Below, piece after piece: positions 13,911-39,646 of a stretch of 64,000 nt of DNA (within the stretch, counting starts at the first letter, position 1; each line of letters starts with the position of its first letter). The stretch lies in the NCBI GenBank assembly GCA_045638945.1, contig JAZUCF010000024.1, positions 25,055 to 89,054 on the forward strand, in the 5' to 3' direction. This DNA is from Clostridia bacterium (lineage in GTDB: Bacteria > Bacillota > Clostridia > UMGS1883). The translations under genes and the position numbers were made by a program. Below the pieces are notes generated by a model. That model searched no databases. It saw only the letters and a list, made by a program, of their open reading frames with translations, and had not been told where the DNA came from.

Positions 13911-16784
13911 ATGAAAAAACTTATAAGCTTGATTTTGGTATTGTGTATGGTGATGAGCTTTGAAAGCTTTGCCCTTGCCGATGAAACTGAAAAGACACAG
14001 GCATCGGCATTTACAACCGTTAAGATTCCGTTCCCCGACAGTATTGAAGACCGCAACTCGTGGATTACACATGCAAGGTATGTAGACAGCGGAGAAATCA
14101 TTCCGCTATCACTTGTATATGAGGGGAATGTGTACGCAACAGTCCCCGTGGAGAATAAGGACCGCGGAATTGAGGCTTTCGTTACCGAAGCAGTGGAATT
14201 TACCGATGTTGATGATTCGGATTTTGATTTTCATGACGTTAAAATGTTGTCACGTGTCGGTGTTGTTCGTGGAAATGACAAGGGCGAGGCAAATATTCAT
14301 GATAACGTAACCCGTGCCGAAGCGGTTGCTATGGTAATGCGTTTCATGGGGCTTGAAGGTCTGGCATGGGAATATACAGATGAAATTTCAGGTAGATATA
14401 CTCAAACCGTTACCTTTGAGGATGTTTCCAAAAAAGACTGGTTTTATTATGTGGTGAATTATGCCCGAGCCTGCGGAATTATTGAGGGCGACAGTCCGAC
14501 AGTCTTTTCTCCTTACAGAAATGTAACGAGGGAAGAAATTACGGCTATGGTTGCAAGAGCCTTGCAGTATGCAAATCTAAGGTGCTTTGTTCGTCAAAAC
14601 GAAAACTTTGCCGACAAAGAAAATATATCCGATTGGGCGAAAGAAGCGTACGATTATCTCGGATATAACTGCATAGTGGACTATCCGCAGAATACGGAAA
14701 ATATTGACTGGGATAACCCCGAACAGTTTCTATATCCGCAGAAAGCGGCTACAAGAGCAAACGTTGCATATATCTTAAATAATGTTCAGGACGAGTGCCA
14801 GATGTATGCATCGGAGCTTGCAAAGATGTTCGGCTTTGACAAAGAAATGCCCAAAATTGATGGCTCAACCTCAACATATCCTTTTACGCAGGTGGTTTAC
14901 AATACGCTTTTCCGTAACGGGCAGACACACCCCGATTATCCGCAAAAACATTCAAAGAGCCATGCTTCATATCAGCGGCTGATAAACGGAGAGGTTGATA
15001 TGCTTTTTGCCTCGGTTTATCCTGCGAGTGATATTCTGAAAATGGCAGAAGAAAAAGGCGTGGAGCTGGAGCTTATCCCAATTGCGTATGATGCGATGAT
15101 ATTCTTTACCAATAAGGATAATCCGATAACGGGGCTTACTAAGGAGCAGATAACTGATATCTATGTGAATGATGCCTATGATAACTGGTCGGAGGTAGGG
15201 GGAAGCGATGCACTTCTTTATCCTTATTGCAGAAATAACGACAGCGGCAGTCATGCACAGATGGAAAAGCATTTCCTTAAAGGAAATGAGATACATAAGG
15301 AAGTACAGAGAGAAACCTCCAGAACAATGTCGGATATTTTAACCGATGTTATAGCGGCAAAAACTGACAGTCCGTTAGGCTATGGACTTGGCTACAGCAT
15401 TTATTATTACTATCATAACGTAGATGCGGTGCTCGACACAAAGCGGCATCTAAAGCTTCTCGCAATCGATGGTGTGATGCCTACTGATGATACTATTGCA
15501 GACGACTCATATCCGCTTTCCAATAACACCTATGTAGTACTCCGAAAAGATACTCCTGCAGACGCACCTGCAAGGAAAATGGCAGAATTTATGCTCACAG
15601 AGGCAGGTCAGCAGTGCGTTGAAGGTGCAGGATTCGGACGACTTAAAAAGACTGTGAAAATTTCAGACGATATGCTCTTTGCGGATAAGATAAACGTACA
15701 GATGCCACAGGATAAAAACTACATGTTTTCCCCATTGTCGATTAAAATGGCTTTATCCCTTGCGGCAAACGGGGCATCGGGCGAAACACAGCAGCAGATA
15801 TTAAATGCGTTGGGAGTTACAAATCTTGATGAATTTAATACACTTTCAAAGGATTTGATAGAAAGATATTCCAAGGCGGATATTTTAAGCCTTAATATTG
15901 CAAATTCAATCTGGATAAACAAGGATAAAACCTCTCAGCAATTCAGCAATGATTTTAAGGGCATTGCTAAGGAGTTTTATAAGGCTGATGCAAATACAGT
16001 CGCCGATGCGTTGGCAGTAAGCGAAATCAATTCGTGGGTAAATGACAAAACGAATGGCAAAATCCCGACTATAATAGATAGCACAGACGATTTTTGGGCA
16101 ATGCTTATTAATGCCATTTACTTTAAAGGTGCATGGCTTGATGAGTTTAATGTAAATGCAACCAAGCCCGACGTATTTAATAATGCAGACGGAACAAAGA
16201 TTACAACCGATTTTATGAATACTACGGACTGGATACCCTATGCCGAAACAAAGTCGGTGCAGATGATAGAGCTTCCTTATCAAAACCGTGTGGAAAAATT
16301 CTCGGACAGCGGAGAATATCTTGATACAGAGGTTTATAAAGACCTTGATGTAAGTATGTATCTTATTATGGCAGATGGCGGCATTAATGCCCAGCAGGAA
16401 TTAACTGCTGCAATAAACGATGATGCTTTTAAGAGCACATACATCAAGCTGGCTATGCCTAAATTCAAGATTGAGTATTCTGCACAGATGAATGACATGC
16501 TTATGAATATGGGCATAACCACAGCATTTGATGAGGGAGAGGCAGACTTTACCAAGATGTTTTATAACGGAAATATGTTTTTTACCGATATGCTTCACAA
16601 AACCTTTATAAGTGTGGACGAAAAGGGAACCGAAGCAGCTGCAGTTACTTCAATCGGCATGGGAGGCTCATCACTTCCGCCCGAGCCTGTCGAGCTTAGG
16701 TTCAATAAACCGTTCTATTTTGCAATCCGTGACAACACAAGCGGCGAAACACTCTTTATGGGACGCTATGCCTTTGCAAATTAA
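13911..16784 (+). CDS. Secreted multidomain protein: signal peptide + 3 SLH domains + PstS-like periplasmic-binding domain + C-terminal serpin
   Basis: N-terminal hydrophobic leader. Three SLH-like repeats (FHDVKMLSRVGVVRG.., FEDVSKKDWFYYVVNYARACGII.., FADKENISDWAKEAYDYLG..). PBP-like-2 signature (GSTSTYP..IAYDAMIFFTNKDNPITGLTKEQITDIY..NDSGSHAQME). Serpin domain from MFSPLSIKMALSLAANGASGETQQQILNALG to the hinge/RCL EKGTEAAAVTSIGMGGSSLPPEP and FNKPFYFAIRD. Single uninterrupted reading frame. Confidence 0.7.
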   Translation: MKKLISLILVLCMVMSFESFALADETEKTQASAFTTVKIPFPDSIEDRNSWITHARYVDSGEIIPLSLVYEGNVYATVPVENKDRGIEAFVTEAVEFTDVDDSDFDFHDVKMLSRVGVVRGNDKGEANIHDNVTRAEAVAMVMRFMGLEGLAWEYTDEISGRYTQTVTFEDVSKKDWFYYVVNYARACGIIEGDSPTVFSPYRNVTREEITAMVARALQYANLRCFVRQNENFADKENISDWAKEAYDYLGYNCIVDYPQNTENIDWDNPEQFLYPQKAATRANVAYILNNVQDECQMYASELAKMFGFDKEMPKIDGSTSTYPFTQVVYNTLFRNGQTHPDYPQKHSKSHASYQRLINGEVDMLFASVYPASDILKMAEEKGVELELIPIAYDAMIFFTNKDNPITGLTKEQITDIYVNDAYDNWSEVGGSDALLYPYCRNNDSGSHAQMEKHFLKGNEIHKEVQRETSRTMSDILTDVIAAKTDSPLGYGLGYSIYYYYHNVDAVLDTKRHLKLLAIDGVMPTDDTIADDSYPLSNNTYVVLRKDTPADAPARKMAEFMLTEAGQQCVEGAGFGRLKKTVKISDDMLFADKINVQMPQDKNYMFSPLSIKMALSLAANGASGETQQQILNALGVTNLDEFNTLSKDLIERYSKADILSLNIANSIWINKDKTSQQFSNDFKGIAKEFYKADANTVADALAVSEINSWVNDKTNGKIPTIIDSTDDFWAMLINAIYFKGAWLDEFNVNATKPDVFNNADGTKITTDFMNTTDWIPYAETKSVQMIELPYQNRVEKFSDSGEYLDTEVYKDLDVSMYLIMADGGINAQQELTAAINDDAFKSTYIKLAMPKFKIEYSAQMNDMLMNMGITTAFDEGEADFTKMFYNGNMFFTDMLHKTFISVDEKGTEAAAVTSIGMGGSSLPPEPVELRFNKPFYFAIRDNTSGETLFMGRYAFAN

Positions 16785-16937: not shown

Positions 16938-17306
16938 ATGAAAATATCAGAAACAGAAATGGAAATTATGAGGATAATCTGGGATAAGGGCGATAAGGTA
17001 ACTACAAGTGAGCTTGCCGAGAAAATGCCCGATAAGAAGCTTACGACTATTTCCACCCTTGCAGGAAGGCTTATTGATAAGGGCTGCCTTAAATCTGAAA
17101 AGATTGGTCGCAGTCATGTTCACGAATATGAGGCGATTATTTCCGAACAGGAATATCAGGCAATGCAAACAAAGGAATTTGTAAGGTCAATTCATCGTGG
17201 TAGTGCAAAAAGCCTTATTTCAGCACTTTTCCGTGATGAAGAATTTACCAAGGAGGATATTGATGAGCTTAGAAGGTTCATAGAAAAGCAGGGTGATGAA
17301 TTATGA
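16938..17306 (+). CDS. BlaI/MecI/CopY family transcriptional repressor
   Basis: 122 aa; winged-helix N-terminus MKISETEMEIMRIIWDKGDKVTTSEL typical of the penicillinase-repressor family. Confidence 0.8.
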   Translation: MKISETEMEIMRIIWDKGDKVTTSELAEKMPDKKLTTISTLAGRLIDKGCLKSEKIGRSHVHEYEAIISEQEYQAMQTKEFVRSIHRGSAKSLISALFRDEEFTKEDIDELRRFIEKQGDEL

Positions 17307-19717
17307 TGGAATCGGTAATTATATCAACCGTTGCAGGCTCTGTCGTTTGCAGTGCATTGCTGATATTTAAAAACAAAATATTATCGTTTTTTGGGGGTAA
17401 AGCACTATACTACATAAGCTTACTTGCAATGCTTATCTTTATTCTTCCCATAAATATCGGTGAATTATCACTTCCCAAAGCACCCATACATCAGGAAGTT
17501 AATGTAACAGAAGTAAATACAGAAGCTCCTGTTAAAAATACAGATAATGCTTTGGTGCAAACAACACAGAGGGCTCCGCAGGAGCCGCAGCATAAGGAAC
17601 TGCCAAAGCCGTCAAATATTGTAAGAAGGTCTAACCCCATTACTGTGCAGGAGATTTTAATATCGGTATGGCTTTTAGGTTTTGTTGCTTCAATATGCAG
17701 ATATTTTATATCATATTTCAGATTCAAGAAGAAAATCTGTGCTTTTGATACACACGAAAATATAAACGGTATAAAGGTAATTAAAAGCCCATTGATAACC
17801 TCTCCCATGATTTTCGGATTTTTCAGACCAACGCTTGCAATTCCCGAAATTGAAATGAACGAGGGCGATTACAACCTTGCAATTAAGCATGAAATGGTGC
17901 ATTATAAGCATCATGATTCATGGATTAAGCTTTTTGCAGTAATCGTTAATTCGATTCACTGGTTTAACCCCATTACATATTTTATGGTGAATTTAATAGG
18001 CGAGGCGTGCGAATATGCCTGTGATGAGCAAGTAACAAAGGAAATGGATTTGACAGACAAGAAGCAGTACAGCACTATGATACTCTCTATGGTATGCCAG
18101 TCTTCACCTGCTCTGTCAAGCAATATGGTTAAAAACAAAAAACAGCTTAAACGGAGGTTTGAGATGATTATGAAAAAGAAAAGCTTCAGCGTTTTTAGAA
18201 CAGCATTATGCACAGTGCTGATACTTACATTAACCTGTGGAAGTATCGTATTGGCAAATAAGGTTGCACCTTTAATTTCTTCCGCCTTGAAGGATGATTA
18301 TGTTTATATAACAACATGGGGAGATAACGGTTACGGTAAAGGCTACAATGAATTCGTCCCCGTAGAGAAGAACGGAGAATACTATCTGCCGCTGAGGGAG
18401 TTTCTGAATAAATCAGATGTTGAAAACGATAAAATCAAATATGACAATGGTGTAATCACGATTGACATCTGGACAAATGAAATGACTGTGGTTTCTGTAG
18501 CTGTTAGGCCAAGCGGCAGCGATCCCACTTTACATGAAAAAGAGAAAAGCAAGACACTCCCTGCCGAATATTCATGGTCAACAAGCTGCAAAATCGGCAG
18601 TAAAGAAGTAGAAATTGCAGGAGAAAAATACACATTATCCAATGCTCCTTATCTTGAGAACGGAATTACATATGTTCCCTACGAGTATCTGAAAAAATTA
18701 AAGCTGTACGAAAATAAGTACACAAGTGCAAATATAGCAAAGCACAGAGGAAGAACAACCTCAAAATTTGATTCAATGATGCTGTTCGGCTTTGACAGTA
18801 CAAACGCACAGTACTATACCGACTATATTCAAATGGAAAATTTGCTTGGCAGAGAGCCGTTTAATTCAGTTTCAAGCATGACATATAATGCCAACGCAAA
18901 AATATCAAAAACAGGCTACCGCACCGAATTTGAAGCTTCATATGATTATTTTGAACTGAATGATGTCGAAAAAGAAGGGCATGTGAAAATAAAGCTGAAC
19001 AAGGTAACCCGTATTTATAGCAAAGGCAGTGACATAGAGGGCTTGTTTACTGTAGTAATTGACGGCAAAACTGTTTACGATAACAAAAAAGGCAATATTA
19101 TACAGCTTCCCATTCCGGCAGGTGACGGAGTGCTGGATTTTTCAAATACCAAGGTCAAAATCGGTGACTTGAATATTGATATGTTCTTTACCGGCTTCAA
19201 TACTGTATCTGACGAATATGATGAAAGAGCAAGGGAAGTAGGCAAAATGAGTGAGCTTCCCGATACTGTCAAAAAATTTATCGTTCCGTCTGCCGTTAAG
19301 CTAAACGGCAAACAGGTTAGCCGTGGTAACAAGACACAAAGCAATTTCTGGTATAACAAGGAAAAGAAGCTTATTGATGTAAACATACAGTTTGACAACT
19401 ACAATGGCGGTAACGGTGCAGACATGGAATCTTACAGAATACACACCGAAGTAAATTCAAAAATGACGGTTATTGATGAAAATACCATCTCAGCAGAATT
19501 GTATTTTACACAGGGGAATAACAATCGTATTGACTCTTTTGATGCAATTGTTATGTTTTTACCCGACGGAGGGTTTGATCTGAAATCCACCGACGGCAAG
19601 TATATTATTATAGGAACGGCAAAGGAATTTGTTCCGCATTGGGAATGGTCGGAGGAAGAAAAGAACGCTCCTGTTCCATCGGTGTTCATGATTAAAGAGC
19701 AAAACGAAGCAGAATAA
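17303..19717 (+). CDS. BlaR1-like M56 family membrane metalloprotease/signal transducer with a large non-PBP extracellular domain
   Basis: TM segments plus HEMVHYKHHD (HExxH of peptidase M56). ~500-aa C-terminal region with copper-amine-oxidase-N-like repeats (YYLPLREFL.., ITYVPYEYLKKL) instead of a penicillin-binding sensor. Overlaps the blaI stop (ATGA). Confidence 0.7.
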   Translation: MMESVIISTVAGSVVCSALLIFKNKILSFFGGKALYYISLLAMLIFILPINIGELSLPKAPIHQEVNVTEVNTEAPVKNTDNALVQTTQRAPQEPQHKELPKPSNIVRRSNPITVQEILISVWLLGFVASICRYFISYFRFKKKICAFDTHENINGIKVIKSPLITSPMIFGFFRPTLAIPEIEMNEGDYNLAIKHEMVHYKHHDSWIKLFAVIVNSIHWFNPITYFMVNLIGEACEYACDEQVTKEMDLTDKKQYSTMILSMVCQSSPALSSNMVKNKKQLKRRFEMIMKKKSFSVFRTALCTVLILTLTCGSIVLANKVAPLISSALKDDYVYITTWGDNGYGKGYNEFVPVEKNGEYYLPLREFLNKSDVENDKIKYDNGVITIDIWTNEMTVVSVAVRPSGSDPTLHEKEKSKTLPAEYSWSTSCKIGSKEVEIAGEKYTLSNAPYLENGITYVPYEYLKKLKLYENKYTSANIAKHRGRTTSKFDSMMLFGFDSTNAQYYTDYIQMENLLGREPFNSVSSMTYNANAKISKTGYRTEFEASYDYFELNDVEKEGHVKIKLNKVTRIYSKGSDIEGLFTVVIDGKTVYDNKKGNIIQLPIPAGDGVLDFSNTKVKIGDLNIDMFFTGFNTVSDEYDERAREVGKMSELPDTVKKFIVPSAVKLNGKQVSRGNKTQSNFWYNKEKKLIDVNIQFDNYNGGNGADMESYRIHTEVNSKMTVIDENTISAELYFTQGNNNRIDSFDAIVMFLPDGGFDLKSTDGKYIIIGTAKEFVPHWEWSEEEKNAPVPSVFMIKEQNEAE

Positions 19718-21162: not shown

Positions 21163-22647
21163 ATGGGTAAAATCGGATTTGACAATCAAAAATATCTTTC
21201 CATGCAGTCGGAACAGATAAGAAAGCGTATTGCTCTTTTCGGAGGAAAGCTATATCTGGAATTCGGGGGAAAGCTTTTTGACGATTTCCATGCCTCACGC
21301 GTTCTTCCGGGCTTTGAGCCGGACAGTAAAATGCGTATGCTTCAGCAGCTTAGTGATGATGTTGAAATCGTCATGACTATTAATGCGGCAGATATTGAAA
21401 CGAATAAAATGCGTGCTGACCTCGGAATAACCTATGATGAAGATGTACTTCGGCTTATCGATACCTTCCGTGAGCTTAATTTATATGTAGGAAGTGTGGT
21501 GCTTACCCGTTACGACGGTCAGGCAAGTGCCAATGCATTTTTAAAGCAGCTTACCGCACTGGGAATCAAGTGCTACAAGCATTATCCCATTGCAGGCTAT
21601 CCCTCGGATATTAAGCATATCGTTAGCGATGAGGGTCTTGGTAAGAATGATTATATTGAAACTACCCGTTCGCTTGTGGTAATAACTGCCCCCGGTCCGG
21701 GAAGCGGTAAAATGGCAACCTGCTTAAGTCAGCTTTATCACGACCATAAAAGAGGGATTACGGCAGGGTACGCTAAGTTTGAAACATTTCCGATTTGGAA
21801 TCTTCCTTTGAAGCATCCCGTGAATCTTGCGTATGAAGCGGCGACGGCAGATTTAAATGACGTAAATATGATTGACCCGTTCCATCTGGAGGCATACGGG
21901 GAAACGGCTGTTAACTATAACCGTGACGTGGAAATCTTCCCTGTGCTTAATGCCATGTTTGAAAGAATTCAGGGAACATCTCCCTATAAATCCCCTACCG
22001 ATATGGGCGTAAATATGGCGGGCAACTGTATTATTGATGATAAGGTTTGCTGCGATGCTTCCAAAATGGAAATTATCCGCAGATATTACAGTGCAAGCGT
22101 GAACAAGCTTCGCTCTTTCAGCGACGATAACGATATAATGAAGCTTGAGCTTCTTATGAATCAGGCGGGAATGCGTCCCGAAAAATGCCCCGTAATCAAA
22201 GCGGCACTTAAAAAAGCCGAGGAAACGGGAGCACCTGCGGGGGCGATGGAGCTTCCTGACGGCAGAATTATTACGGGAAAAACCTCAAGCACTCTCGGTG
22301 CGGCATCGGCACTTCTCCTTAATGCACTGAAAGCATTGGGAGATATCGACGATGAACTTCTTCTTATTTCGGCGGACGTGCTTGAGCCTATATGTGCTCT
22401 TAAGACTAATTACCTTAAACACAAAAATCCCAGGCTTCATACCGACGAGGTTTTAATGTCGCTTACTATTTCAGCTCTTTCAAACCCCGTTGCAAATGCG
22501 GCGAAAGAGCAGCTCTCTAATCTTCACGGAAGCAATGCACATTTTTCTGTTATAATCAGCGAGGAAGACGAGAAAATTCTCAGAAGACTCGGCATTAATG
22601 TAAGCTGTGAAGCAAAATACGAAAACAAAAGTTTGTATCATAAATAA
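21163..22647 (+). CDS. DUF1846/UPF0371 family protein
   Basis: 494 aa; N-terminus MGKIGFDNQKYLSMQSEQIRKRI..DFHASRVLPGFEPD matches the conserved UPF0371 family of Firmicutes; extended -10 TGTGGTATACT upstream. Confidence 0.6.
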   Translation: MGKIGFDNQKYLSMQSEQIRKRIALFGGKLYLEFGGKLFDDFHASRVLPGFEPDSKMRMLQQLSDDVEIVMTINAADIETNKMRADLGITYDEDVLRLIDTFRELNLYVGSVVLTRYDGQASANAFLKQLTALGIKCYKHYPIAGYPSDIKHIVSDEGLGKNDYIETTRSLVVITAPGPGSGKMATCLSQLYHDHKRGITAGYAKFETFPIWNLPLKHPVNLAYEAATADLNDVNMIDPFHLEAYGETAVNYNRDVEIFPVLNAMFERIQGTSPYKSPTDMGVNMAGNCIIDDKVCCDASKMEIIRRYYSASVNKLRSFSDDNDIMKLELLMNQAGMRPEKCPVIKAALKKAEETGAPAGAMELPDGRIITGKTSSTLGAASALLLNALKALGDIDDELLLISADVLEPICALKTNYLKHKNPRLHTDEVLMSLTISALSNPVANAAKEQLSNLHGSNAHFSVIISEEDEKILRRLGINVSCEAKYENKSLYHK

Positions 22648-26606: not shown

Positions 26607-27833
26607 ATGCAGAAAGTTGAACTTCTGGCACCTGCCGGAAATCTTTATAAACTGAAAATCGCACTGAAATATGGCGCCGATGCGGTGTATATAGGGGGAG
26701 AATGTTTTTCTCTGCGTACCGCCGCGGATAATTTTACTCCCGAAGAAATGCGTGAGGGAATAGAATTTGCACACAGCATGGGGAAAAAGGTTTATATCAC
26801 AGCCAATATTATTCCTCATAACCGTGACCTTGCCGAAATGGAAAGGTATTTCAAAGAAGTTGACGATATGGGTGCAGATGCGGTAATTATTTCTGATTTG
26901 GGAGCTTTCAATATTTGCAAAAGAGTTGCTCCGAAACTTGAAATACATATCAGCACTCAAGCTAACAATACAAACTATGCCACGGTACAGTCGTGGCATG
27001 AAATGGGTGCAAAGAGAGTTGTTCTTGCCCGTGAAATGACTCTTTCCGAGGTAAGGGAGATTCGTGATAATATAAGCTCCGATTGTGAACTTGAGGCATT
27101 TGTTCACGGGGCTATGTGCGTTTCCTATTCGGGAAGGTGTCTGCTCAGTAACTATATGACAGCCCGTGACAGTAACTGTGGTGCATGCTCTCATCCGTGC
27201 AGATGGAACTATGCTCTCATGGAAGAAAAACGCCCCGGGGAATATCTCCCCGTGTTTGAAAATGAACGCGGTACATTTATAATGAATTCCAAGGACCTAT
27301 GTATGATTGAGCATATTCCCGAAATAGTGGGAAGCGGTGTTTACTCGCTGAAAATTGAAGGCAGAGTAAAAAGTGAGTACTACGTTGCAACGATTATTGC
27401 CGCATACAGAAAAGCCATTGATTCTTATTATGAAAACCCTGCGGAGTATAAGTTTAATCCGGCATGGCTTGATGAAGTGAAAAAGGTAAGCCACCGTGAT
27501 TATTATACAGGCTTCTTTTTTGGAATCCCCGATACTGGAGCGCAGATTTACGGCTCAAGCTCTTACATACGCGAATATGATATTGCAGGAATAGTGCTTG
27601 ATTACGATCCTGAAACCTCGCTCGCTAAGGTAACGCAGAGAAACCGTTTTTTTAAAGGGGACGAAATTGAAATTATGCAGCCGGGTAAGGACTTTACCAT
27701 TCAAAAAGTAGAGGTTTTAAAAGACGAAAACCTGAATGATATAGACGTTGCAAACCATGCGGCAATGACGCTTTATATAAAGACCGATGTTCACGTGGTA
27801 AAGGATGCAATGATAAGAAAGAAAGCAGAGTGA
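26607..27833 (+). CDS. Peptidase U32 family protein (YrrN/TrhP/RlhA-like)
   Basis: ELLAPAGN..GADAVYIGG start and the U32 Cys cluster CVSYSGRCLLSNY..CGACSHPC. Confidence 0.8.
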   Translation: MQKVELLAPAGNLYKLKIALKYGADAVYIGGECFSLRTAADNFTPEEMREGIEFAHSMGKKVYITANIIPHNRDLAEMERYFKEVDDMGADAVIISDLGAFNICKRVAPKLEIHISTQANNTNYATVQSWHEMGAKRVVLAREMTLSEVREIRDNISSDCELEAFVHGAMCVSYSGRCLLSNYMTARDSNCGACSHPCRWNYALMEEKRPGEYLPVFENERGTFIMNSKDLCMIEHIPEIVGSGVYSLKIEGRVKSEYYVATIIAAYRKAIDSYYENPAEYKFNPAWLDEVKKVSHRDYYTGFFFGIPDTGAQIYGSSSYIREYDIAGIVLDYDPETSLAKVTQRNRFFKGDEIEIMQPGKDFTIQKVEVLKDENLNDIDVANHAAMTLYIKTDVHVVKDAMIRKKAE

Positions 27834-31831: not shown

Positions 31832-31879
31832 AGGATATAAAAAGTGGTTGCAATTTTTCGCAACCACTTTTTATATCCT
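31832..31879. terminator. Bidirectional terminator (19-bp-arm perfect palindrome GGATATAAAAAGTGGTTGC/GCAACCACTTTTTATATCC)
   Basis: Long perfect inverted repeat between convergent genes. Confidence 0.65.
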
Positions 31880-31881
31880 TT

Positions 31882-32730
31882 TCATATTTCCGTATGTATC
31901 TGCAAATGCCTGTATTCCTTGGGGGTCATGCCGATGTTTTCTCTGAATATCTTGATGAAATATGCCGAGGAACAAAAACCGCTTCTCCATGCAATCTGAG
32001 AAATATCATATTTTGTGGTGAGCAGATAATCCTTTGCAATCTGAAGCCTGTAATAAATCAAATATTTATGAAGTGTTTTCCCTGTTTCCTCTTTGAAAAT
32101 TCTGCTTAAATGGTAAGGATGATAGTTGAAATTTTCTGCAATATCTTCATTTGTAAGATTACTGTTGGAGAAATTGTCGTGTATGTAGGAAAGAACCTCC
32201 TCGCACAGCTCCGACTGCGAATGTGAGGCGTTTTGCTTTATAAACTCCAAAAGGCACAGCTTTAGAAGTGCAGAGGAATTTTCTCTGTAGAATTGATTTT
32301 TAAAAATGAAGTTTTCCGTGCATTGTGTAAGCATCCTTTCAATTTGCGGAATTATTCGGACAATGGGCTTTGAGAGTTCTTCTAATGTATCGTAGGGAGG
32401 GAGAATACTTTTATCAAAATTTGATACAGTGGCAGTACCCATGGAGGCCTTAAGATTTTCATTTCTGTTGTCAAGGTCAAAATCCATTACAACTGCACTG
32501 CCGTTTTCCTTGAACGTGACATTGAATTTATACTCAGTTTCGGGAGGGAAGAACACGGCGGTTTTATTGAGAATGTTATGTTTTTTCCCGTTTACCGTGA
32601 CACTGCCTGTAACATTGTTAAAGAAAAATATTCGAGAGTCATAGCATTTGCTGATATCCTTCTTCGTACGAAAATACGCCTTATGTACTCTTGCATATCG
32701 TATGTGGGGATTAATATCCGAAATTTTCAT
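31882..32730 (-). CDS. AraC family transcriptional regulator
   Basis: 282 aa; cupin-like N-terminus and C-terminal AraC HTH (..ISQIAWRSGFCSSAYFIKIFRENIGMTPKEYR). Confidence 0.85.
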   Translation of the reverse strand: MKISDINPHIRYARVHKAYFRTKKDISKCYDSRIFFFNNVTGSVTVNGKKHNILNKTAVFFPPETEYKFNVTFKENGSAVVMDFDLDNRNENLKASMGTATVSNFDKSILPPYDTLEELSKPIVRIIPQIERMLTQCTENFIFKNQFYRENSSALLKLCLLEFIKQNASHSQSELCEEVLSYIHDNFSNSNLTNEDIAENFNYHPYHLSRIFKEETGKTLHKYLIYYRLQIAKDYLLTTKYDISQIAWRSGFCSSAYFIKIFRENIGMTPKEYRHLQIHTEI

Positions 32731-32841
32731 AAAAAAAGCCGCCTTTGTTTGTTTTGTTATATTTTTTGTTGTTTCTGTTATACATTATAGCAGGAAAATA
32801 TGGTATAGTCAATATGAAATATGATATCGGAGGTGGGAAGA

Positions 32842-33846
32842 ATGAAATTTGCGGTCGGGTATCAACTGTGTCAGGACAAGAGTTTTCTTGACAATATCAT
32901 ACAAAGAAAGGAATCTGTTTCCGAGGTTTATTTTTCATGGGGGGATTTTCCCAACGGAAGAAATAATCAGCTCAGAAATTCCTCTATGACACCATGGGAG
33001 GCTCAGGCTAAGCAGATTTCAGACCTTGAGGGGCTTACCAAGGAAGGAATATCACTCAATCTTCTTCTCAATGCCACCTGCTACGGAAAGGACAGCCAGT
33101 CCCGTGCTTTTTTTGAAAAGGTAGGGGAGTGCGTCGATTTCATACAGAATAAATACATATTAAATTCAGTAACCACCACATCACCTTTGATTGCTAAATT
33201 TATCAAGGAGAATTTCAAAGGCGTTGACGTGCGTGCCTCCGTCAACATGTGTATAGGAACAATTGAAGGGATGGAGTATATAGCTCACCTCTTTGACAGT
33301 TTTTATTTAAAAAGGGAGCTGAATCGCAATTTTGAAGCAATCCGCAAGCTTAAGAAATGGTGCGATAATCACGGCAAAGTACTTTATGCACTGGCTAACA
33401 GCGGATGCCTTAATAACTGCTCGGCACATACCTTTCACGATAACCTTGTATCACATGAAAGTGAAATTTCACAAATGGATAACGGATATTCTTTTAAGGG
33501 AATTTGCCACTCTTTTCTTTCCAAGGAAGAAAATATTAAGAAAATAGTAGATTACACAGGGTTTATACGTCCCGAAGATATTTATTTGTATGAGGAGTTA
33601 TTTCCTGCAATGAAGCTTGCCACAAGGGTTAATCAAGACCCAGTAAAAATCCTTCGGGCATACATAGACGATAAAAAATTTATCGGAAGCACCCTGTCCC
33701 TCTTAGAACCAAATCACACGGGAACAATAGCCCCGTATTTGCTTGAAAACAGCTTAATTAAGGCTGAAGTAACAGAAAATAATTTAAAGTATAACATAGA
33801 AAACGCATTGATAAAACTAAAGGAGGATGTATATGTTAACGAGTGA
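32842..33846 (+). CDS. Hypothetical protein, possibly a divergent peptidase-U32-family (TIM-barrel Fe-S) protein
   Basis: Weak motif parallels with the U32 protein at 26607 (EVYFSWGDFPNGRNN vs AVYIGGECFSLRTAADN; ALANSGCLNNCSAH vs GAMCVSYSGRC); GGAGGTGGG RBS; divergent from the AraC gene. Confidence 0.3.
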   Translation: MKFAVGYQLCQDKSFLDNIIQRKESVSEVYFSWGDFPNGRNNQLRNSSMTPWEAQAKQISDLEGLTKEGISLNLLLNATCYGKDSQSRAFFEKVGECVDFIQNKYILNSVTTTSPLIAKFIKENFKGVDVRASVNMCIGTIEGMEYIAHLFDSFYLKRELNRNFEAIRKLKKWCDNHGKVLYALANSGCLNNCSAHTFHDNLVSHESEISQMDNGYSFKGICHSFLSKEENIKKIVDYTGFIRPEDIYLYEELFPAMKLATRVNQDPVKILRAYIDDKKFIGSTLSLLEPNHTGTIAPYLLENSLIKAEVTENNLKYNIENALIKLKEDVYVNE

Positions 33847-34912
33847 GATGATAAAAAGAGCCGCGCTTGAAGCAGGTGCAGATGCGTGCGGTATCGGTCC
33901 TATGTCACGCTTTGAAGGTGCGCCCAAGGAAATGGACCCCAGGTATCTTTTCCCCAATGCAAAGAGTGTAATAGGCTTTGTATTCAGAATTCCAAGAGGC
34001 GTGCAGAGAGGTATTGAGGAGGGAACGCAGTTCTACCAGTACCCCTCTATGGCATATGGCGGAATCAACGAAATTTTCGCTCCCGCAGTACTCCATCATG
34101 TAGGAAGAGTCATTGAGGATGAAGGCTATGAAGCTGTTATTTACAGAAATACGGGTGCGCGAGGTGTTGTTTCAGATATGGACGGAAGCCCCGGAAACAG
34201 CCTTTCTCCCGAGGAACAGATTGAAGTTAGCAAGCACGCAAAGGGAAAGACAGCTCACCACAGAAGCGTGCAGTTTACTCGCGAAGTATCGGAGGGTAAG
34301 GTTCCCCCGGATTTGCAGTTCCAGTTCAGAATTGCGGCGGTTGCCTGCGGCCTTGGTGAAATAGGATGGAGTAAGATGCTTCTCACACCCGATTTTGGTC
34401 CTCTCCAGCGTGTGGCATTCATTTTTACCGATGCAGAGCTTGAATATGACGAAATGTACAGCGGAGAACCGCTTTGCAGAAAGTGCGGTGCCTGCGTAAG
34501 GGAATGTCCGGGAGGATGTATTCCGCCTCTTAATTCAGACAAAAAGGTAACTGTTAATCTCGCAGGAAAAATTCTTGAATGGGGCGACATTGATATGTGG
34601 CGTTGCTATGCATTTTATACACATGGCGGCAGATATTATAATCCTTTTGTTCCCAAAGAGGTTTTCGATAAAAATGAGAATGGTGCTCTTGACCTTCTTG
34701 AAGGTATCACAAATGAGGCAAACGAGAAAGAAATTATGAAGGTATACACCGCTCTTGAAAAATATTTTCCAAGTTGGGTTGGTTACAATATGGCAAAATG
34801 CGGTGGCTGTATACGAGCTTGCGTAAGCGTGCTTGAGAAGAAGGGCGGATGTATGGAAGGCAGATTCAAACAGCCCCTCAGAACCAAAAAAGCATGGAAA
34901 ATGGACAGATAA
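33833..34912 (+). CDS. QueG/reductive-dehalogenase superfamily Fe-S protein, paralog 1
   Basis: Architecture parallels epoxyqueuosine reductase: N-term A.EAGADACGIG, NAKSVIGF.., GLGEIGWSKMLLTPDFGPLQRVAFIFTDAELEYDE, 4Fe-4S motif CRKCGACVRECPGGCI, WRCYAFY, and a distal Cys cluster CGGCIRAC. Confidence 0.55.
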   Translation: MLTSEMIKRAALEAGADACGIGPMSRFEGAPKEMDPRYLFPNAKSVIGFVFRIPRGVQRGIEEGTQFYQYPSMAYGGINEIFAPAVLHHVGRVIEDEGYEAVIYRNTGARGVVSDMDGSPGNSLSPEEQIEVSKHAKGKTAHHRSVQFTREVSEGKVPPDLQFQFRIAAVACGLGEIGWSKMLLTPDFGPLQRVAFIFTDAELEYDEMYSGEPLCRKCGACVRECPGGCIPPLNSDKKVTVNLAGKILEWGDIDMWRCYAFYTHGGRYYNPFVPKEVFDKNENGALDLLEGITNEANEKEIMKVYTALEKYFPSWVGYNMAKCGGCIRACVSVLEKKGGCMEGRFKQPLRTKKAWKMDR

Positions 34913-34925
34913 GGGGGTATAGAAA

Positions 34926-35828
34926 ATGAATGCAGAATTTATAAAACAAAAGGCAAAGGAATACGGTGCTACAGTTTGTGGTATAGGTAATATTGAGCTT
35001 CTGAGAAATGAAGATAAGCATCGTAACCCTTTTTATATTCTTCCAAATGCAAAAAGTATAATCGGCTTTGGAATCAAGGTGCCGAAAGGACTTTATAATG
35101 CAATGGAAAACGAGCGTCAGTATTACAATTATACTAATTTGGGAGTTAAATATATTGATGAAACCTTTGCTGAGATTTTCCTTTTGAAAATGGGTGCTCT
35201 CATTGAAAATGAAGGATATGATGCGTGCCTTCAAAGATATATTCCCGGCTTTAAAATCAAGGGTGATAAAAGTACAAACCCTGAAGTTAACAGGATTTAT
35301 GAACTGGCACTTGCCGAAGCTGTCAAGGAGGGGAAACCCGAACCTGATGTTATTATAGACTATAACAAGGCGGCAGTTATCTGCGGTCTCGGAAGCATCG
35401 GGCTTCATAATAAGGTGATTGTTCCCAAGTATGGTACATATATGCGATTCGTTTTCATAATTACGGATATGGAGCTTGAATTTGATGAGCCTTTTAAGGA
35501 AGAGCTTTGTGACGGATGCGGAGAATGTATAAAGGCATGTCCCGGAAAGGCTGTTTCAAAAGATGGCGTTGATTCATGGCAGTGCAGCGTATACTACAGA
35601 GGTGCTCATAAATCCAATCCTTTTATTACAGACGAATTTCTGAAAGACCATCCCGAGAGAGAGGCAATTTTAAACGGAGAAAAGAGATTTGACAAGGAAA
35701 GCGCCCTTGAAATTTACGACGACCTTAAAATACTCCCCAATACACATTTCGGATACGTTCCCTGTCTTTGCGGAAAGAAATGCGAAACTGTGTGCTACAA
35801 GCATCTTAAGGAGGTGGGCAGAATATGA
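34926..35828 (+). CDS. QueG/reductive-dehalogenase superfamily Fe-S protein, paralog 2
   Basis: AKEYGATVCGIG, NAKSIIGFGIKVP, GLGSIGLHNKVIVPKYGTYMRFVFIITDMELEFDEP, CDGCGECIKACPGKAV, WQCSVYY, CLCGKKCETVCY. Confidence 0.55.
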   Translation: MNAEFIKQKAKEYGATVCGIGNIELLRNEDKHRNPFYILPNAKSIIGFGIKVPKGLYNAMENERQYYNYTNLGVKYIDETFAEIFLLKMGALIENEGYDACLQRYIPGFKIKGDKSTNPEVNRIYELALAEAVKEGKPEPDVIIDYNKAAVICGLGSIGLHNKVIVPKYGTYMRFVFIITDMELEFDEPFKEELCDGCGECIKACPGKAVSKDGVDSWQCSVYYRGAHKSNPFITDEFLKDHPEREAILNGEKRFDKESALEIYDDLKILPNTHFGYVPCLCGKKCETVCYKHLKEVGRI

Positions 35829-36805
35829 AAAACAAGATTATAGAAATTGCAAAAAAATATGATGCCGACATCGTCGGATTTGCTCCTGCGGACAGATTTT
35901 CAAAGGATGACGCAATTTTTAAAGTGTTCCCCGAAACAAAAACTGTAATCGGGCTTGGATTCAGAGTTCTTCGCGGTATTTATCGCGGAGTTGAAGAAGG
36001 AACTACATATTATCAGTATACAACAATGGGTGTTGAAAATCTTGAAGAAACAGTAATGCCTCTTGCTCTTATCAATGTAAGCAATTTTATCGAGGAGGAA
36101 GGATTTGAAGCAATTCCTCAGAGAAGAAATCAGCTTATTATGAATGAGGAAAACAGCACCAATCCCGAGGTAGATTATACAGATATCGTCCGCGGTGTCA
36201 CTGCCGAGAATCAGATTGATTTTACAGATTGTGCAGTAAAGTGCGGCCTTGGTGAAAGAAGTATGATTAATACTGTCCTCACCCCCGAATATGGACCATT
36301 CATAAGATACTGCTTTATTCTTACCGATGCCGAGATTGAGGCAACCGACATGCTTGAGCCTTCATTGTGCGATAAATGCGGAGAATGTATAAAGGCATGT
36401 CCCGGCAAGGCAATTAATGAGGAAGGATATCTTGATCCGTGGAGATGTGCCGTGTATTATAACGGCGCGAATGGAAGTAAAAATCCTTTCATGCCTCCCG
36501 AAGCGTATATAGATTTTGAAAACAGATTGGAAATAATAGCAGGTGAGGCTGATTTTGATGTAGAGCTTGCAAAAAAGATTCTTGACGCAACCTTCTTTTA
36601 TCCGCCCGCAAAGCATTTCTACCGTACATCTATTTGTGGCAGAGCCTGCGACAGAGCGTGCTATATTCATCTTGAAGAAAAGGGCGTCCTTAAAAAGAGC
36701 TTCAAGAAAAAATTCCGTGAGGGCGAGGACTGGAAATTAGATACCAAGCAGTTTGAAACTTTGAAAAGAGAAAAGCCTTGGGTTTTCACACAGGACGAAA
36801 AATAA
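35825..36805 (+). CDS. QueG/reductive-dehalogenase superfamily Fe-S protein, paralog 3
   Basis: AKKYDADIVGFAP, TKTVIGLGFRV, GLGERSMINTVLTPEYGPFIRYCFILTDAEIE, CDKCGECIKACPGKAI, WRCAVYY, CGRACDRACY; overlaps paralog 2 by 4 nt. Confidence 0.55.
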   Translation: MKNKIIEIAKKYDADIVGFAPADRFSKDDAIFKVFPETKTVIGLGFRVLRGIYRGVEEGTTYYQYTTMGVENLEETVMPLALINVSNFIEEEGFEAIPQRRNQLIMNEENSTNPEVDYTDIVRGVTAENQIDFTDCAVKCGLGERSMINTVLTPEYGPFIRYCFILTDAEIEATDMLEPSLCDKCGECIKACPGKAINEEGYLDPWRCAVYYNGANGSKNPFMPPEAYIDFENRLEIIAGEADFDVELAKKILDATFFYPPAKHFYRTSICGRACDRACYIHLEEKGVLKKSFKKKFREGEDWKLDTKQFETLKREKPWVFTQDEK

Positions 36806-36822
36806 AATAAGGAGGCATAGTT

Positions 36823-38292
36823 ATGTTTGAAAAAGTAACCCCCGAATCAGTGGGAGTGTCTTCCGAAAAAGTTCTTGAATTTATAAAAATCCTTGATGAC
36901 TGTCGGCTCAGAAATCACAGCATAATTATGGCAAAGGGAGATAAAATTTTTGCAGAATGTTATTACAAGCCCTTTAATAAAAAGTTTCTCCACAGAATGT
37001 ACAGCGTTTCAAAGAGCTTTGTTGCCATGGCGGTAGGCGTTGCTGTAACGGAAGGACTTATAAAACTTGACGATGTGATCGTAGATTATTTCCCTGAATT
37101 CAGAAACGAAAATGTTGATTCCTATCATGATGAGTGTACTATCCGTGATATGCTTTGTATGAGCAGTAACATTGGCGACCACGTAATCTGGTGGGGGAAA
37201 TATAAAAGCCGTGTAGAAGCATATTACACAAAGAAAACCAACAAAATTCCGGGTACGTTATTCTTTTATGACAGCGTAGGTTCATTCCTTTTGGGCTGTA
37301 TTATTGAGAAGCTTACGGGAAAGCCTTTCCTTGAGTATCTGAAAGAAAAAGTGCTTCTTGAAATCGGCTTTTCAAAGGAAAGCTATACCCTTACAGAACC
37401 GGGTGGATTTACAGTAGGCGACAGCGGCGTAATGTGCACCGCCCGCGACCTGCTTATATTTGCCAGATTTATTATGAAAAAGGGCGAGTGGAACGGAAAA
37501 CAGTATATCGACCGCAACTTTATGGAGGAAGCGATTAAAATTCAAACGACTAACAACCTTGCAGGCATGGCAAAGTACTATGGAAATCAGGGGTATGGAT
37601 ATCTTATATGGAAAACGCATCCCGATGGATTTTCACTTGTTGGAATGGGCGACCAGCTTGCAATATGCGACATGAAGAAGGATATTTGCTTTATAATAAC
37701 CTCCGACAATCAGGCAGATAAACCTGCAAGGCGTGTCACATATCACGAGTATTATTATCATTTTCTTCCATCGGTAAAAGATATACCCCTTGAGGAAAAT
37801 CCCACGGCACAAAGAGAACTTAAAGAATATCTTGAAAACACTACCCTGATTTGTCAATATGGGAAAAAAACTTCTCCCATTGCAGACAAGGTAAATGGCG
37901 TAAAGTATTTAATGGATGAAAATCCCCTTAACATTTCATATTTCAGGCTTGACCTTAATAAAAATGTGCTTGAGTTTGAAAAGGAAGGCAGGATTCTTAA
38001 TCTCGAATTTTCCATTAGTGAGAATAAGCTTACAAAATTTTCGTTAGGAGACCGTGCAACGGCAGATAAAATGGGATTTCGTGAAGAGGGCGAATATGAC
38101 TGTGCCAACAGCGGTGCATGGGTAGAGGAAAATCAGTTTTCCATAATGACACAGGTAATAGACACCTATTTCGGAGGACTTTACATTTCAATTGGTTTCA
38201 AGGATGACCGCGCATCCTTTGTTATGAGAAACAGCGGACAGTATGTATTTAATAATGCCGATGGATTTGCAATCGGCAAATCGGAAAAATAA
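36823..38292 (+). CDS. Beta-lactamase-fold serine hydrolase (class C/esterase-like)
   Basis: 489 aa; SxxK nucleophile motif in MYSVSKSF, no signal peptide (cytoplasmic), long C-terminal extension. Confidence 0.6.
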   Translation: MFEKVTPESVGVSSEKVLEFIKILDDCRLRNHSIIMAKGDKIFAECYYKPFNKKFLHRMYSVSKSFVAMAVGVAVTEGLIKLDDVIVDYFPEFRNENVDSYHDECTIRDMLCMSSNIGDHVIWWGKYKSRVEAYYTKKTNKIPGTLFFYDSVGSFLLGCIIEKLTGKPFLEYLKEKVLLEIGFSKESYTLTEPGGFTVGDSGVMCTARDLLIFARFIMKKGEWNGKQYIDRNFMEEAIKIQTTNNLAGMAKYYGNQGYGYLIWKTHPDGFSLVGMGDQLAICDMKKDICFIITSDNQADKPARRVTYHEYYYHFLPSVKDIPLEENPTAQRELKEYLENTTLICQYGKKTSPIADKVNGVKYLMDENPLNISYFRLDLNKNVLEFEKEGRILNLEFSISENKLTKFSLGDRATADKMGFREEGEYDCANSGAWVEENQFSIMTQVIDTYFGGLYISIGFKDDRASFVMRNSGQYVFNNADGFAIGKSEK

Positions 38293-38301
38293 GAAAGGTA
38301 G

Positions 38302-39582
38302 ATGAGTATTATGTCAGTAAAGAAAGAGAAAATCACCATCGCAGTTATTGGCTGCGGCAGATTCGCAAAAAATTTCGTACCTCTTTTTAAGGCACACCCC
38401 GAAGTAAAAAAGGTTTACGTGTGTGACCTTATCCCCGAAAGAGCGAAGGACTATTCTGAGAGATTTGGCGTAGAGATTATCGGAAGCTTTGAGGAGGCTC
38501 TTGAATCAAAGGAGGTTAACTCCATTGCAATCTTCACCCAGCGTTTCAAGCACGCTCCTATGGCTATTGCATCTCTTAAAGCAGGTAAGCATGTTTACAG
38601 TGCGGTTCCCTGCTCACTCAAAATAGAAGAAATTAAGGAAATTATTGAACTTGTAACAAAAACACGCCTTACATATACTATGGGCGAAACAGGCTTCTAC
38701 AGAGCACCTGCAATATTCTGTCGTGAAGAATATGCAAAGGGAACCTTTGGTAAATTCACATATGGTGAAGCTCATTACAATCACGATATCAGAAATATGG
38801 AGGACAGCTTCAGAAGCTCTGGCGGAGATAGATGGAAAGAATTTGCAGGAATTCCTCCCATGTATTATCCTACACATTCAACCGCAATGGTTCTTAGCTC
38901 AATGCCCGGAGTATATGCTAAAAAGGTTGTGGCACTCGGTTATGCAGGAAGCCCCAGAACCGATATTTACGGAACCGAGGGACAGAATCTTTACAATAAT
39001 CCCTTCTCAAATACCACAATGCTTCTTGAGCTTTCAAACGGTGGTATAGCCAGAATCAGTGAAAACCGCTGCGTAGGCTGGAAAGCTCCCGAAACATATA
39101 TCTCACAGTTCTATGGAACAGACGGCGGATATGAATTTTCAGTTGCAAAACACCATGTTGCACACTGGAAAGAGGAGGATCCCAAGAGCGTAAACATGAA
39201 GGACGTAACAGCTAAGCTTCAGCCCGTGCATGTTAACGAGCTTATAAATACAGATTATGATGAAGCAATTCAGAAAATTGCCGACGGCGAAGGCTTTTAC
39301 GATGTATCTCCCATCCAGCCTGTGGAAAGACTTCCCAAGGAATATGAGGGAATTCATAACGGACACAACGGAACACATCACTTCCTGATTGACGACTTCT
39401 GCCGTGCATATGCAACAGGAAAGCTTTCTCCCACAAATATCTGGGAGGTGGCACGCTGGAACATTCCCGGACTTATGGCACATGAATCTGCCCTTGCAGG
39501 AGGAAAGGTTATGGATGTAATCGATTTTGGTGAACCTCCGGCAGACTGGGAAGTACTTGACTGGAAAACAAAAGGATATTAA
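38302..39582 (+). CDS. Gfo/Idh/MocA family oxidoreductase
   Basis: N-terminal Rossmann ITIAVIGCGRFAKNFVPLF and EKP-like region; 426 aa. Confidence 0.7.
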   Translation: MSIMSVKKEKITIAVIGCGRFAKNFVPLFKAHPEVKKVYVCDLIPERAKDYSERFGVEIIGSFEEALESKEVNSIAIFTQRFKHAPMAIASLKAGKHVYSAVPCSLKIEEIKEIIELVTKTRLTYTMGETGFYRAPAIFCREEYAKGTFGKFTYGEAHYNHDIRNMEDSFRSSGGDRWKEFAGIPPMYYPTHSTAMVLSSMPGVYAKKVVALGYAGSPRTDIYGTEGQNLYNNPFSNTTMLLELSNGGIARISENRCVGWKAPETYISQFYGTDGGYEFSVAKHHVAHWKEEDPKSVNMKDVTAKLQPVHVNELINTDYDEAIQKIADGEGFYDVSPIQPVERLPKEYEGIHNGHNGTHHFLIDDFCRAYATGKLSPTNIWEVARWNIPGLMAHESALAGGKVMDVIDFGEPPADWEVLDWKTKGY

Positions 39583-39591
39583 TATCTTTAA

Positions 39592-39632
39592 ACAAAAAAA
39601 GAAACGAAACTTATGTTTCGTTTCTTTTTTTG
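39592..39632. terminator. Bidirectional terminator (AAAAAAAGAAACGAAAC-ttat-GTTTCGTTTCTTTTTTT)
   Basis: Perfect palindrome incorporating A/T tracts. Confidence 0.65.
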
Positions 39633-39646
39633 TTTTGTTAATAAAT

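Follow-up and report, generated by a model that had tools for sequence, protein, structure and literature searches.

Positions 31882-39582 of the stretch analysed here (64,000 nucleotides of a Clostridia bacterium, GenBank assembly GCA_045638945.1, contig JAZUCF010000024.1, positions 25,055 to 89,054; this whole stretch is called the window) raise the question of what three adjacent genes for iron-sulphur (Fe-S) proteins, each resembling both QueG and the reductive dehalogenase RdhA, do together in one cluster. All seven open reading frames (ORFs) that an initial annotation had listed there were found, with a divergent gene for an AraC-type regulator on the minus strand facing six genes on the plus strand. 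Three of these six are the adjacent Fe-S paralogs of the RdhA/QueG class, QA (33827..34912, 359-361 amino acids), QB (34926..35828, 300 amino acids) and QC (35825..36805, 326 amino acids), and they are preceded by the first gene of the core, ORF2 (32842..33846, 334 amino acids), which encodes a U32-like TIM-barrel protein. The overall proposal of that annotation, an uncharacterised, AraC-regulated and possibly B12-dependent reductive or catabolic system made of old QueG/RdhA paralogs and a U32-like protein, is supported by profile alignment with QueG (hhalign probability 96.7%) and by co-conservation of the genes. Our preferred answer, held with a little more belief than doubt, is a regulated, cytoplasmic, oxygen-sensitive reductase of the QueG/RdhA class, in which three diverged subunits and the U32-like protein would act on one small-molecule substrate.

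Three paralogs related to QueG and RdhA

RdhA and QueG form the class III B12/Fe-S superfamily, whose fold is common with CblC. With a mutual pairwise identity of 34-39%, QA, QB and QC fall within the range of approximately 30-40% that had been given for them as old paralogs. Judged by curated whole-protein thresholds, they are neither QueG nor RdhA, because their scores lie far under both cut-offs. On the QueG model TIGR00276 (cut-off 200 bits), QA, QB and QC reached 27.1, 48.8 and 40.2 bits through local matches of about 75 residues, and on the RdhA model TIGR02486 (cut-off 160.35 bits) they reached 37.4, 48.0 and 40.6 bits. The matched region consists of about 60 residues ahead of the first cluster motif (AAVxCGLGExG...LTPEFGP..R..FI.TD), and the same stretch is the best-conserved core common to RdhA and QueG. 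Since the matches span this non-ferredoxin core, the paralogs are not plain ferredoxins; the family assignment of the initial annotation thus held at the level of the core and failed at that of the curated cut-offs. Similarly, the DUF1730-like N-terminal domain that it had proposed found no match in QA, QB or QC with the Pfam model (PF08331, E up to 0.1), whereas homology with QueG was recovered by hhalign and by fold. The alignment of the family with E. coli QueG had an E-value of 3e-10 and extended over 192 columns, beginning at the N-terminus and reaching into the ferredoxin domain. Furthermore, a profile built from 64 family members matched PceA with an E-value of 1.7e-15 and QueG with one of 4e-14. 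Sequence comparison and predicted structure together place the paralogs in the corrinoid/2x[4Fe-4S] "class III B12" fold, at roughly equal distance from QueG and RdhA.

The architecture of this class is present in the paralogs, namely a nitroreductase-like, corrinoid-type N-terminal domain followed by a ferredoxin domain with eight Cys ligands. The CxxCGxCxxxCPG, W-x-C and distal CG(x)xCxxxC motifs occur in QA, QB and QC alike, as had been described for W-x-C and the distal Cys cluster; the first motif had been given in the longer form CxxCGxCxxxCPGxAI, of which the "AI" after CPGx is found in QB and QC only. All eight cluster Cys are invariant in the three paralog families (64 family members). 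Their pattern is that of S. thermophilus QueG (ligands C184/187/190/194, C210 and C236/239/243; PMC4646009), except that the distance from the fifth Cys to the sixth is longer by about 60 residues. Further invariant residues are a ninth Cys directly before GLGE, a Tyr (Y72 in QA), a Pro-Glu pair (P128-E129) and W258, and an acidic residue stands 13 positions before GLG in all three families. At the nucleotide level, QB and QC have in common a stretch of 36 nucleotides (window 35516-35551 and 36376-36411) that is identical at 35 of 36 positions and encodes CGECIKACPGKA, in proteins that are 39% identical overall; local gene conversion between the paralogs may account for it.

The source annotations call the paralogs and their homologs "4Fe-4S binding protein", "QueG" or "hypothetical". 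The QueG label would suit additional QueG isozymes, or RNA-modification enzymes working with a U32-type RNA hydroxylase similar to TrhP or RlhA. QueG acts on tRNA, TrhP and RlhA are U32 hydroxylases of tRNA and rRNA, and the cluster lies 3' of ruvAB in the window, a location downstream of ruvAB that we take to be the place of queA-tgt in Bacillus. This explanation nevertheless appears extremely improbable in view of the scores on the QueG model, all of them between 27 and 49 bits. The paralogs have no counterpart of the HEAT-like domain with which the C-terminal part of QueG binds RNA (Leu257-Leu385 in B. subtilis; PMC5175355), and alignments with QueG stop within the ferredoxin domain. Moreover, the module has an AraC regulator, a patchy distribution and many different genomic contexts, and it is linked to dehydrogenases and glycosidase-like genes, not to translation genes.

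The slightly better match of the family profile to PceA than to QueG points in another direction, towards cytoplasmic reductive dehalogenases of the catabolic type that would act on dietary or environmental organohalides. Fused relatives of the paralogs, described below, score 112-126 bits on TIGR02486, and cytosolic RdhA-like proteins without a twin-arginine translocation (TAT) signal are known (PMC12219181). QA, QB and QC themselves, at 37-48 bits, miss the cut-off of that model by a wide distance. Their N-termini (MYMLTSEMIK, MNAEFIKQ and MKNKIIEI) contain no RR motif and hence no TAT signal, and neither a gene for an RdhB-like small membrane protein nor a fused NAD(P)H-reductase domain was found in the module across 62 loci. 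The accessory genes are of a sugar type (Gfo, cupin, DUF5696 and glycoside hydrolases) and not of the kind expected for catabolism of aromatic or halo-organic compounds, and the hosts are fermentative gut Clostridia. We therefore regard dehalogenation as quite improbable.

Conservation of the module and its U32-like partner

With the ORF2 alignment as query, one genome of each species was scanned; relatives turned up in 159 genomes, and 80 loci were taken for neighbourhood analysis. The host genomes belong almost entirely to uncultured gut and rumen Clostridia (Oscillospiraceae, Faecousia, Acutalibacteraceae and Acetatifactor/Lachnospiraceae), together with a few Victivallales, and the host animals include ruminants, rabbit and human. 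QA, QB and QC were all present in 62 of the 65 loci with enough flanking sequence, so that the co-conservation in relatives that the initial annotation had named as a check was observed. They follow ORF2 in this order in 60 loci; in the other two (L058 and L060) AraC-ORF2 and the triad are on opposite strands and diverge from each other. Since the order recurs in loci from other species, the arrangement is not a product of chance. The 4-nt overlap between QB and QC is kept in 46 of 61 loci, and ORF2 and QA overlap or are separated by at most 30 nt in 61 of 70. Mean pairwise identity across loci was 85% for QA, 68% for both QB and QC, and 60% for ORF2, and QA is therefore under by far the strongest constraint. 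The conserved core, kept across about 60 species, is ORF2-QA-QB-QC, with ORF2 as the tight partner of the paralogs and with the hydrolase and Gfo genes as accessories.

Two loci had an irregular structure. One is a contig of the same species with 99% nucleotide identity (L001:1080-3157, corresponding to window 33993-35926 and ~37826-38235), from which QB is missing altogether, together with most of QA and the start of QC; an in-frame QA/QC hybrid is formed at a 7-nt microhomology (ATTCAGA), and a second in-frame deletion, of 411 bp, lies within the beta-lactamase-fold gene. Either natural deletion or faulty assembly could have produced this structure. Given two in-frame deletions of doubtful authenticity in a contig of the same species, we dropped it as proof that the triad is dispensable. 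In the other, on a complete chromosome of a metagenome-assembled genome (L054:9986-15738, CP091729.1), the module is fragmented, with QA in two pieces and QC in three, and the fragments are either pseudogenes or the result of long-read frameshift errors.

ORF2 had no Pfam or NCBIfam match, PF01136 included, and a sequence search of the PDB was also empty. Its structural model (predicted local distance difference test, pLDDT, 87) consists of a TIM barrel and a small C-terminal beta domain. Foldseek matched this model to the U32 "peptidase" Mk0906 with an E-value of 1.9e-10, the next match having 1.6e-4. By hhalign, the ORF2 family gave nothing significant against E. coli UbiU, E. coli UbiV or the canonical U32 protein of the window. 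Because the sequence-level comparisons were not significant, it is the fold that carries the assignment, and the model gives ORF2 a U32-type TIM-barrel fold; the weak U32 resemblance pointed out in the initial annotation is thus found in structure and not in sequence. The homologs of ORF2 have invariant Cys80, Cys174, Cys189, Cys193 and Cys222, invariant His196, His199 and His205, and a conserved motif, NSGC-x3-C-x5-FHDN-x3-HE. These invariant residues suggest a putative metal or Fe-S site. The canonical U32 protein (PF01136, 327 bits, with a U32 C-terminal domain) is encoded at window 26607-27833 on the plus strand, just 5' of ruvA/ruvB, so that this genome has a standard U32 protein in addition to the divergent, U32-like ORF2.

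The U32 fold of ORF2, together with its five invariant Cys and three invariant His, would also fit a different division of labour, in which ORF2 is the catalyst, a U32-type enzyme or oxygen-independent hydroxylase comparable to UbiU/UbiV, TrhP and RlhA, and QA, QB and QC, having lost corrinoid binding, form a multi-cluster Fe-S scaffold that supplies it with electrons. The spacing C174...C189-x3-C193 recalls the ligands of UbiV, which we take to be C180, C193 and C197. Moreover, ORF2 can stand among sugar genes with no paralog beside it, and it is precisely the loops of the would-be corrinoid pocket that have low confidence in the QB model. On the other hand, ORF2 lacks sequence-level similarity to UbiU, UbiV and the canonical U32 protein of its own genome, and the most conserved stretch of the paralogs is the non-ferredoxin RdhA/QueG core (AGLGE..G...LT.E.GP..R...TD). 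QA, at 85% identity, is far more constrained than ORF2, at 60%, which would not be expected of a mere electron wire, and fusions of three paralog-type domains mostly occur without an ORF2-like gene. Overall, we consider a catalytic ORF2 served by an electron scaffold to be plausible but clearly less likely than our preferred answer.

These fusions came from an exhaustive profile search, which retrieved 198 representatives at E <=1e-30 and 1,288 at E <=1e-10. They are distant relatives of the paralogs, proteins of about 725-813 amino acids (e.g., P0283, P0290 and P0296) whose single chain has three tandem domains of the paralog type; the first and third of these are full-length and contain both Cys motifs, and domain 2 comprises the N-terminal half only. 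Despite their higher scores on TIGR02486, they remain under its cut-off, and the family appears to be uncharacterised. We examined 80 fusion loci (L087-L166), all from environmental metagenomes. The fusion genes often lie 3' of an IclR regulator, and the clusters hold up to four extra single-domain paralogs; a typical map reads IclR, fusion, single-domain gene, ORF2-like gene and two or three more single-domain genes (e.g., L105:1557-9348). The single-domain genes of the environmental clusters all score best against QA, and one-to-one orthology with QA, QB and QC was accordingly rejected. The genes flanking one environmental cluster encode ThuA, an HpcH/HpaI aldolase, a 2-hydroxyacid dehydrogenase, an aldo-keto reductase fused to a ferredoxin domain and a small protein similar to the B12-reactivation domain of MetH. 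The fusion of three domains in one chain suggests, by Rosetta-stone-type reasoning, that the domain triad is functionally one unit. ORF2-like genes (E 1e-66 to 1e-116) adjoin the fusions in 10 of the 80 loci, and this recurrence implies that the partnership predates the gut lineage.

A few genes 3' of the fusion/ORF2-like cluster, two of the environmental loci have a gene for a protein of about 237 amino acids (L113:18103-18816 and L110:14806-15525, both on the minus strand) that matches the MetH activation domain PF02965 with 29 bits. Such a gene hints, if weakly, at a partner for corrinoid reactivation.

Operon structure and accessory genes

According to its sequence signals, the region appears to be an AraC-controlled accessory operon of six genes bounded by two strong terminators. 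On the left, a bidirectional terminator hairpin (31832..31879, both strands; 20-bp stem with T-runs on each side) closes the AraC gene and an upstream amidase gene. The gene of the AraC/XylS-family regulator (31882..32730, minus strand; PF12833 79 bits, PF00165 69 bits) is separated from ORF2 by a divergent promoter region (32731..32841) with a promoter match and a ribosome-binding site. The match, TTGACT-17-TATAAT with an extended -10 TG, is on the minus strand at 32812-32784. The start of ORF2 is most likely the ATG at 32842, because a GGAGGTG ribosome-binding site stands in front of it, in agreement with homologs of 334 amino acids; an alternative ORF start lies at 32821. QA overlaps the end of ORF2 and may alternatively start at 33833. 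A gap of 13 nt separates QA from QB, the start of QC overlaps the end of QB by 4 nt (ATGA), and the gaps from QC to the hydrolase gene and from there to the Gfo gene are 17 and 9 nt. The operon ends at an intrinsic terminator on the plus strand (39591..39634; 20-bp stem and T-run), 9 nt past the Gfo stop codon. No comparable terminator was found between the genes inside the unit, terminators with 20-bp stems being confined to the two flanks.

The initial annotation had also named the divergent AraC regulator, the beta-lactamase-fold hydrolase and the Gfo/Idh/MocA dehydrogenase, and Pfam agreed for each of them (79, 97 and 67 bits). Its inclusion of the last two as pathway members proved too broad, since the hydrolase gene occurs in only 5 of 62 modules and the Gfo gene is found 3' of the module in 26 of the 54 loci with enough downstream sequence, which makes both of them accessories. 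The serine hydrolase or acyltransferase (36823..38292, plus strand; PF00144), a lineage-specific accessory, has a SVSK motif and no signal peptide. It matches NF045925, the 3-succinyl-cholic-acid synthase model, over its full length (2-465 against 27-481 of 498) with 166 bits vs a cut-off of 800, and by this comparison it has the architecture of NF045925 but is not an equivalog. The Gfo protein (38302..39582, plus strand), a frequent accessory, is predicted to be an NAD(P) dehydrogenase (PF01408, 66.8 bits vs a cut-off of 24), and in the PDB it is closest to the C-glycoside 3-oxidase DgpA (E 2.6e-17), with GH109 next.

Across the 62 modules, a divergent AraC gene lies within 700 bp of ORF2 in 47, and a gene for a cupin of about 120 amino acids is present in 23, often between QA and QB. 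DUF5696 genes, which are glycosidase-like, lie 3' of the module in 7 loci. In two loci a radical-SAM/SPASM gene stands between ORF2 and QA (L071:3242-4237, and a 308-amino-acid ORF in L064), and in a third (L059:211-1212) such a gene is divergent from a lone ORF2; its product could act as another kind of accessory dehydrogenase or as a maturase.

Elsewhere in the window, positions 13911-16784 (plus strand) encode a protein of 957 amino acids with S-layer homology, a periplasmic-binding-protein-like region and a complete serpin domain (289 bits), which by its domains looks like a cell-surface-anchored bacterial serpin. A homolog of the BlaR1-type M56 sensor-protease fused to copper-amine-oxidase-like repeats is encoded at 17303-19717 (plus strand), and a DUF1846 protein (607 bits) at 21163-22647 (plus strand).

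Proposed function and comparison with known systems

In the proposed mechanism, QA, QB and QC would assemble as one hetero-oligomeric reductase that binds a corrinoid, and low-potential electrons would come from a ferredoxin or flavodoxin encoded elsewhere in the genome. With two electrons, a C-O (or C-X) bond of a small molecule would be reductively cleaved or deoxygenated. The AraC protein would sense this substrate, and ORF2 would perform an adjoining step on it. The variable accessory enzymes could then mean that different lineages feed a diet-derived substrate into the same core.

Several observations weigh against this proposal. The class III B12 enzymes cannot be recognised by a corrinoid-binding motif, since no diagnostic one exists (PMC4646009), and the binding proposed here is deduced from fold and homology. 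Tyr101 and Asp130 of QueG may or may not have their counterparts in the invariant Tyr and the acidic residue of the paralogs, because the hhalign register in these loops is unreliable; at residues 65-77 and 107-130, moreover, the QB model has a pLDDT under 50. Within the window we found neither a B12 transporter nor an electron donor, and a search for RNA elements, the B12 riboswitch among them, returned one tRNA only; across loci, the module has no conserved transporter or electron-donor gene next to it. What directly adjoins it varies between loci, showing a slight leaning to glycan genes (GH3, GH20, DUF4832/4874 and GDSL esterases) and some recombinases. The hosts of the module are nearly all uncultured. 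ORF2 also occurs without the paralogs in 3 of 65 loci, where the lone copies sit among several Gfo genes, a xylose-isomerase-like barrel and DUF5696, and 70 of the 80 fusion loci have no ORF2-like neighbour; an obligate complex of ORF2 with the paralogs is therefore not required.

As for the substrate, the accessory genes (the DgpA/GH109-like Gfo, cupin, DUF5696, glycosidases, esterases, ThuA and aldolases) point weakly, by analogy, to a diet-derived compound resembling a sugar or polyol, such as a sugar, a glycoside or a cyclitol-like molecule; the hint is weak because no transporter is conserved and the neighbours are heterogeneous. A more specific form of our preferred reading, which we put forward tentatively and with considerable doubt, is a heterotrimeric corrinoid/Fe-S reductase with a U32-like partner for the reductive deoxygenation of a carbocyclic or sugar-like dietary molecule, a reaction type that would be new for class III B12 enzymes. 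Candidate reactions could be dehydroxylation, ether cleavage or conversion of an epoxide to an alkene. Examples among orphan activities, each of them carrying a very small probability, are the dehydroxylation of cyclitols or of quinate/shikimate and the de-epoxidation of trichothecenes or other epoxides of the diet. For trichothecene de-epoxidation, a 2025 review names organisms and no enzyme. The known de-epoxidisers (Coriobacteriia and Desulfitobacterium) are not among the module hosts, and we keep this idea as a low-probability example.

To our knowledge, the established activities of the class with a corrinoid and two [4Fe-4S] clusters are limited to reductive dehalogenation and epoxyqueuosine reduction. 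Those who solved the QueG structure expected more families in the class and thought them hard to find for want of a B12-binding motif (PMC4646009). The module is a concrete candidate for such a family, being regulated, widespread in gut and rumen Clostridia (~159 species) and represented by thousands of database homologs. If it is B12-dependent, it would add a new cobamide-requiring function to gut microbial ecology and a new multi-subunit architecture to the class, and the U32-like protein would gain its first functional partner outside hydroxylation. If the substrate is dietary, the genes behind an unexplained anaerobic reductive transformation would have been identified. Our literature search (U32 with QueG, class III B12 families, and QueG paralogs or RdhA-like proteins of the gut) found no description of a module with a U32-like protein and multiple RdhA/QueG-like paralogs, and a recent survey of RdhA-like diversity included no such architecture.

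Compared with QueG (TIGR00276; 5d6s, 5d08), the paralogs have the same succession of a nitroreductase-like N-terminal domain and a 2x[4Fe-4S] ferredoxin domain, the same eight-Cys logic and the same core motif ahead of the clusters, and both are cytoplasmic proteins without a TAT signal. They differ from it in the missing HEAT-like domain, the insert between the fifth and sixth Cys and the ninth invariant Cys before GLGE, and the D-Y-H/Asp134 catalytic set of QueG is not demonstrably conserved in them. Furthermore, QueG is encoded by a single housekeeping gene, whereas the paralogs are three tandem genes of a regulated accessory operon. With RdhA (PceA 4uqu, 8q4h; NpRdhA 6zxu), to which their profile is as near as to QueG, they have in common a second cluster built from a distant Cys and a CxxCxxxC-type motif. 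Unlike RdhA, they are about 100-150 residues shorter, have neither a TAT signal, an RdhB anchor nor a reductase fusion, and lie in a sugar-like gene context instead of one for organohalide respiration.

ORF2 differs from the U32 family (Mk0906 5d88; UbiU/UbiV, TrhP and RlhA) in having no PF01136 match and in a Cys/His motif distinct from the U32 signature, and we know of no U32 protein that partners proteins of the RdhA/QueG type. As for the 3-keto-glycoside pathways of the gut (C-glycoside cleavage by DgpA/DgpBC, and ThuAB), they contain neither a corrinoid/Fe-S reductase nor a U32-like protein, and the Gfo gene is absent from about half of the modules. Where it is present, its product is nearest to DgpA, and related clusters carry ThuA, more Gfo genes and a xylose-isomerase-like barrel.

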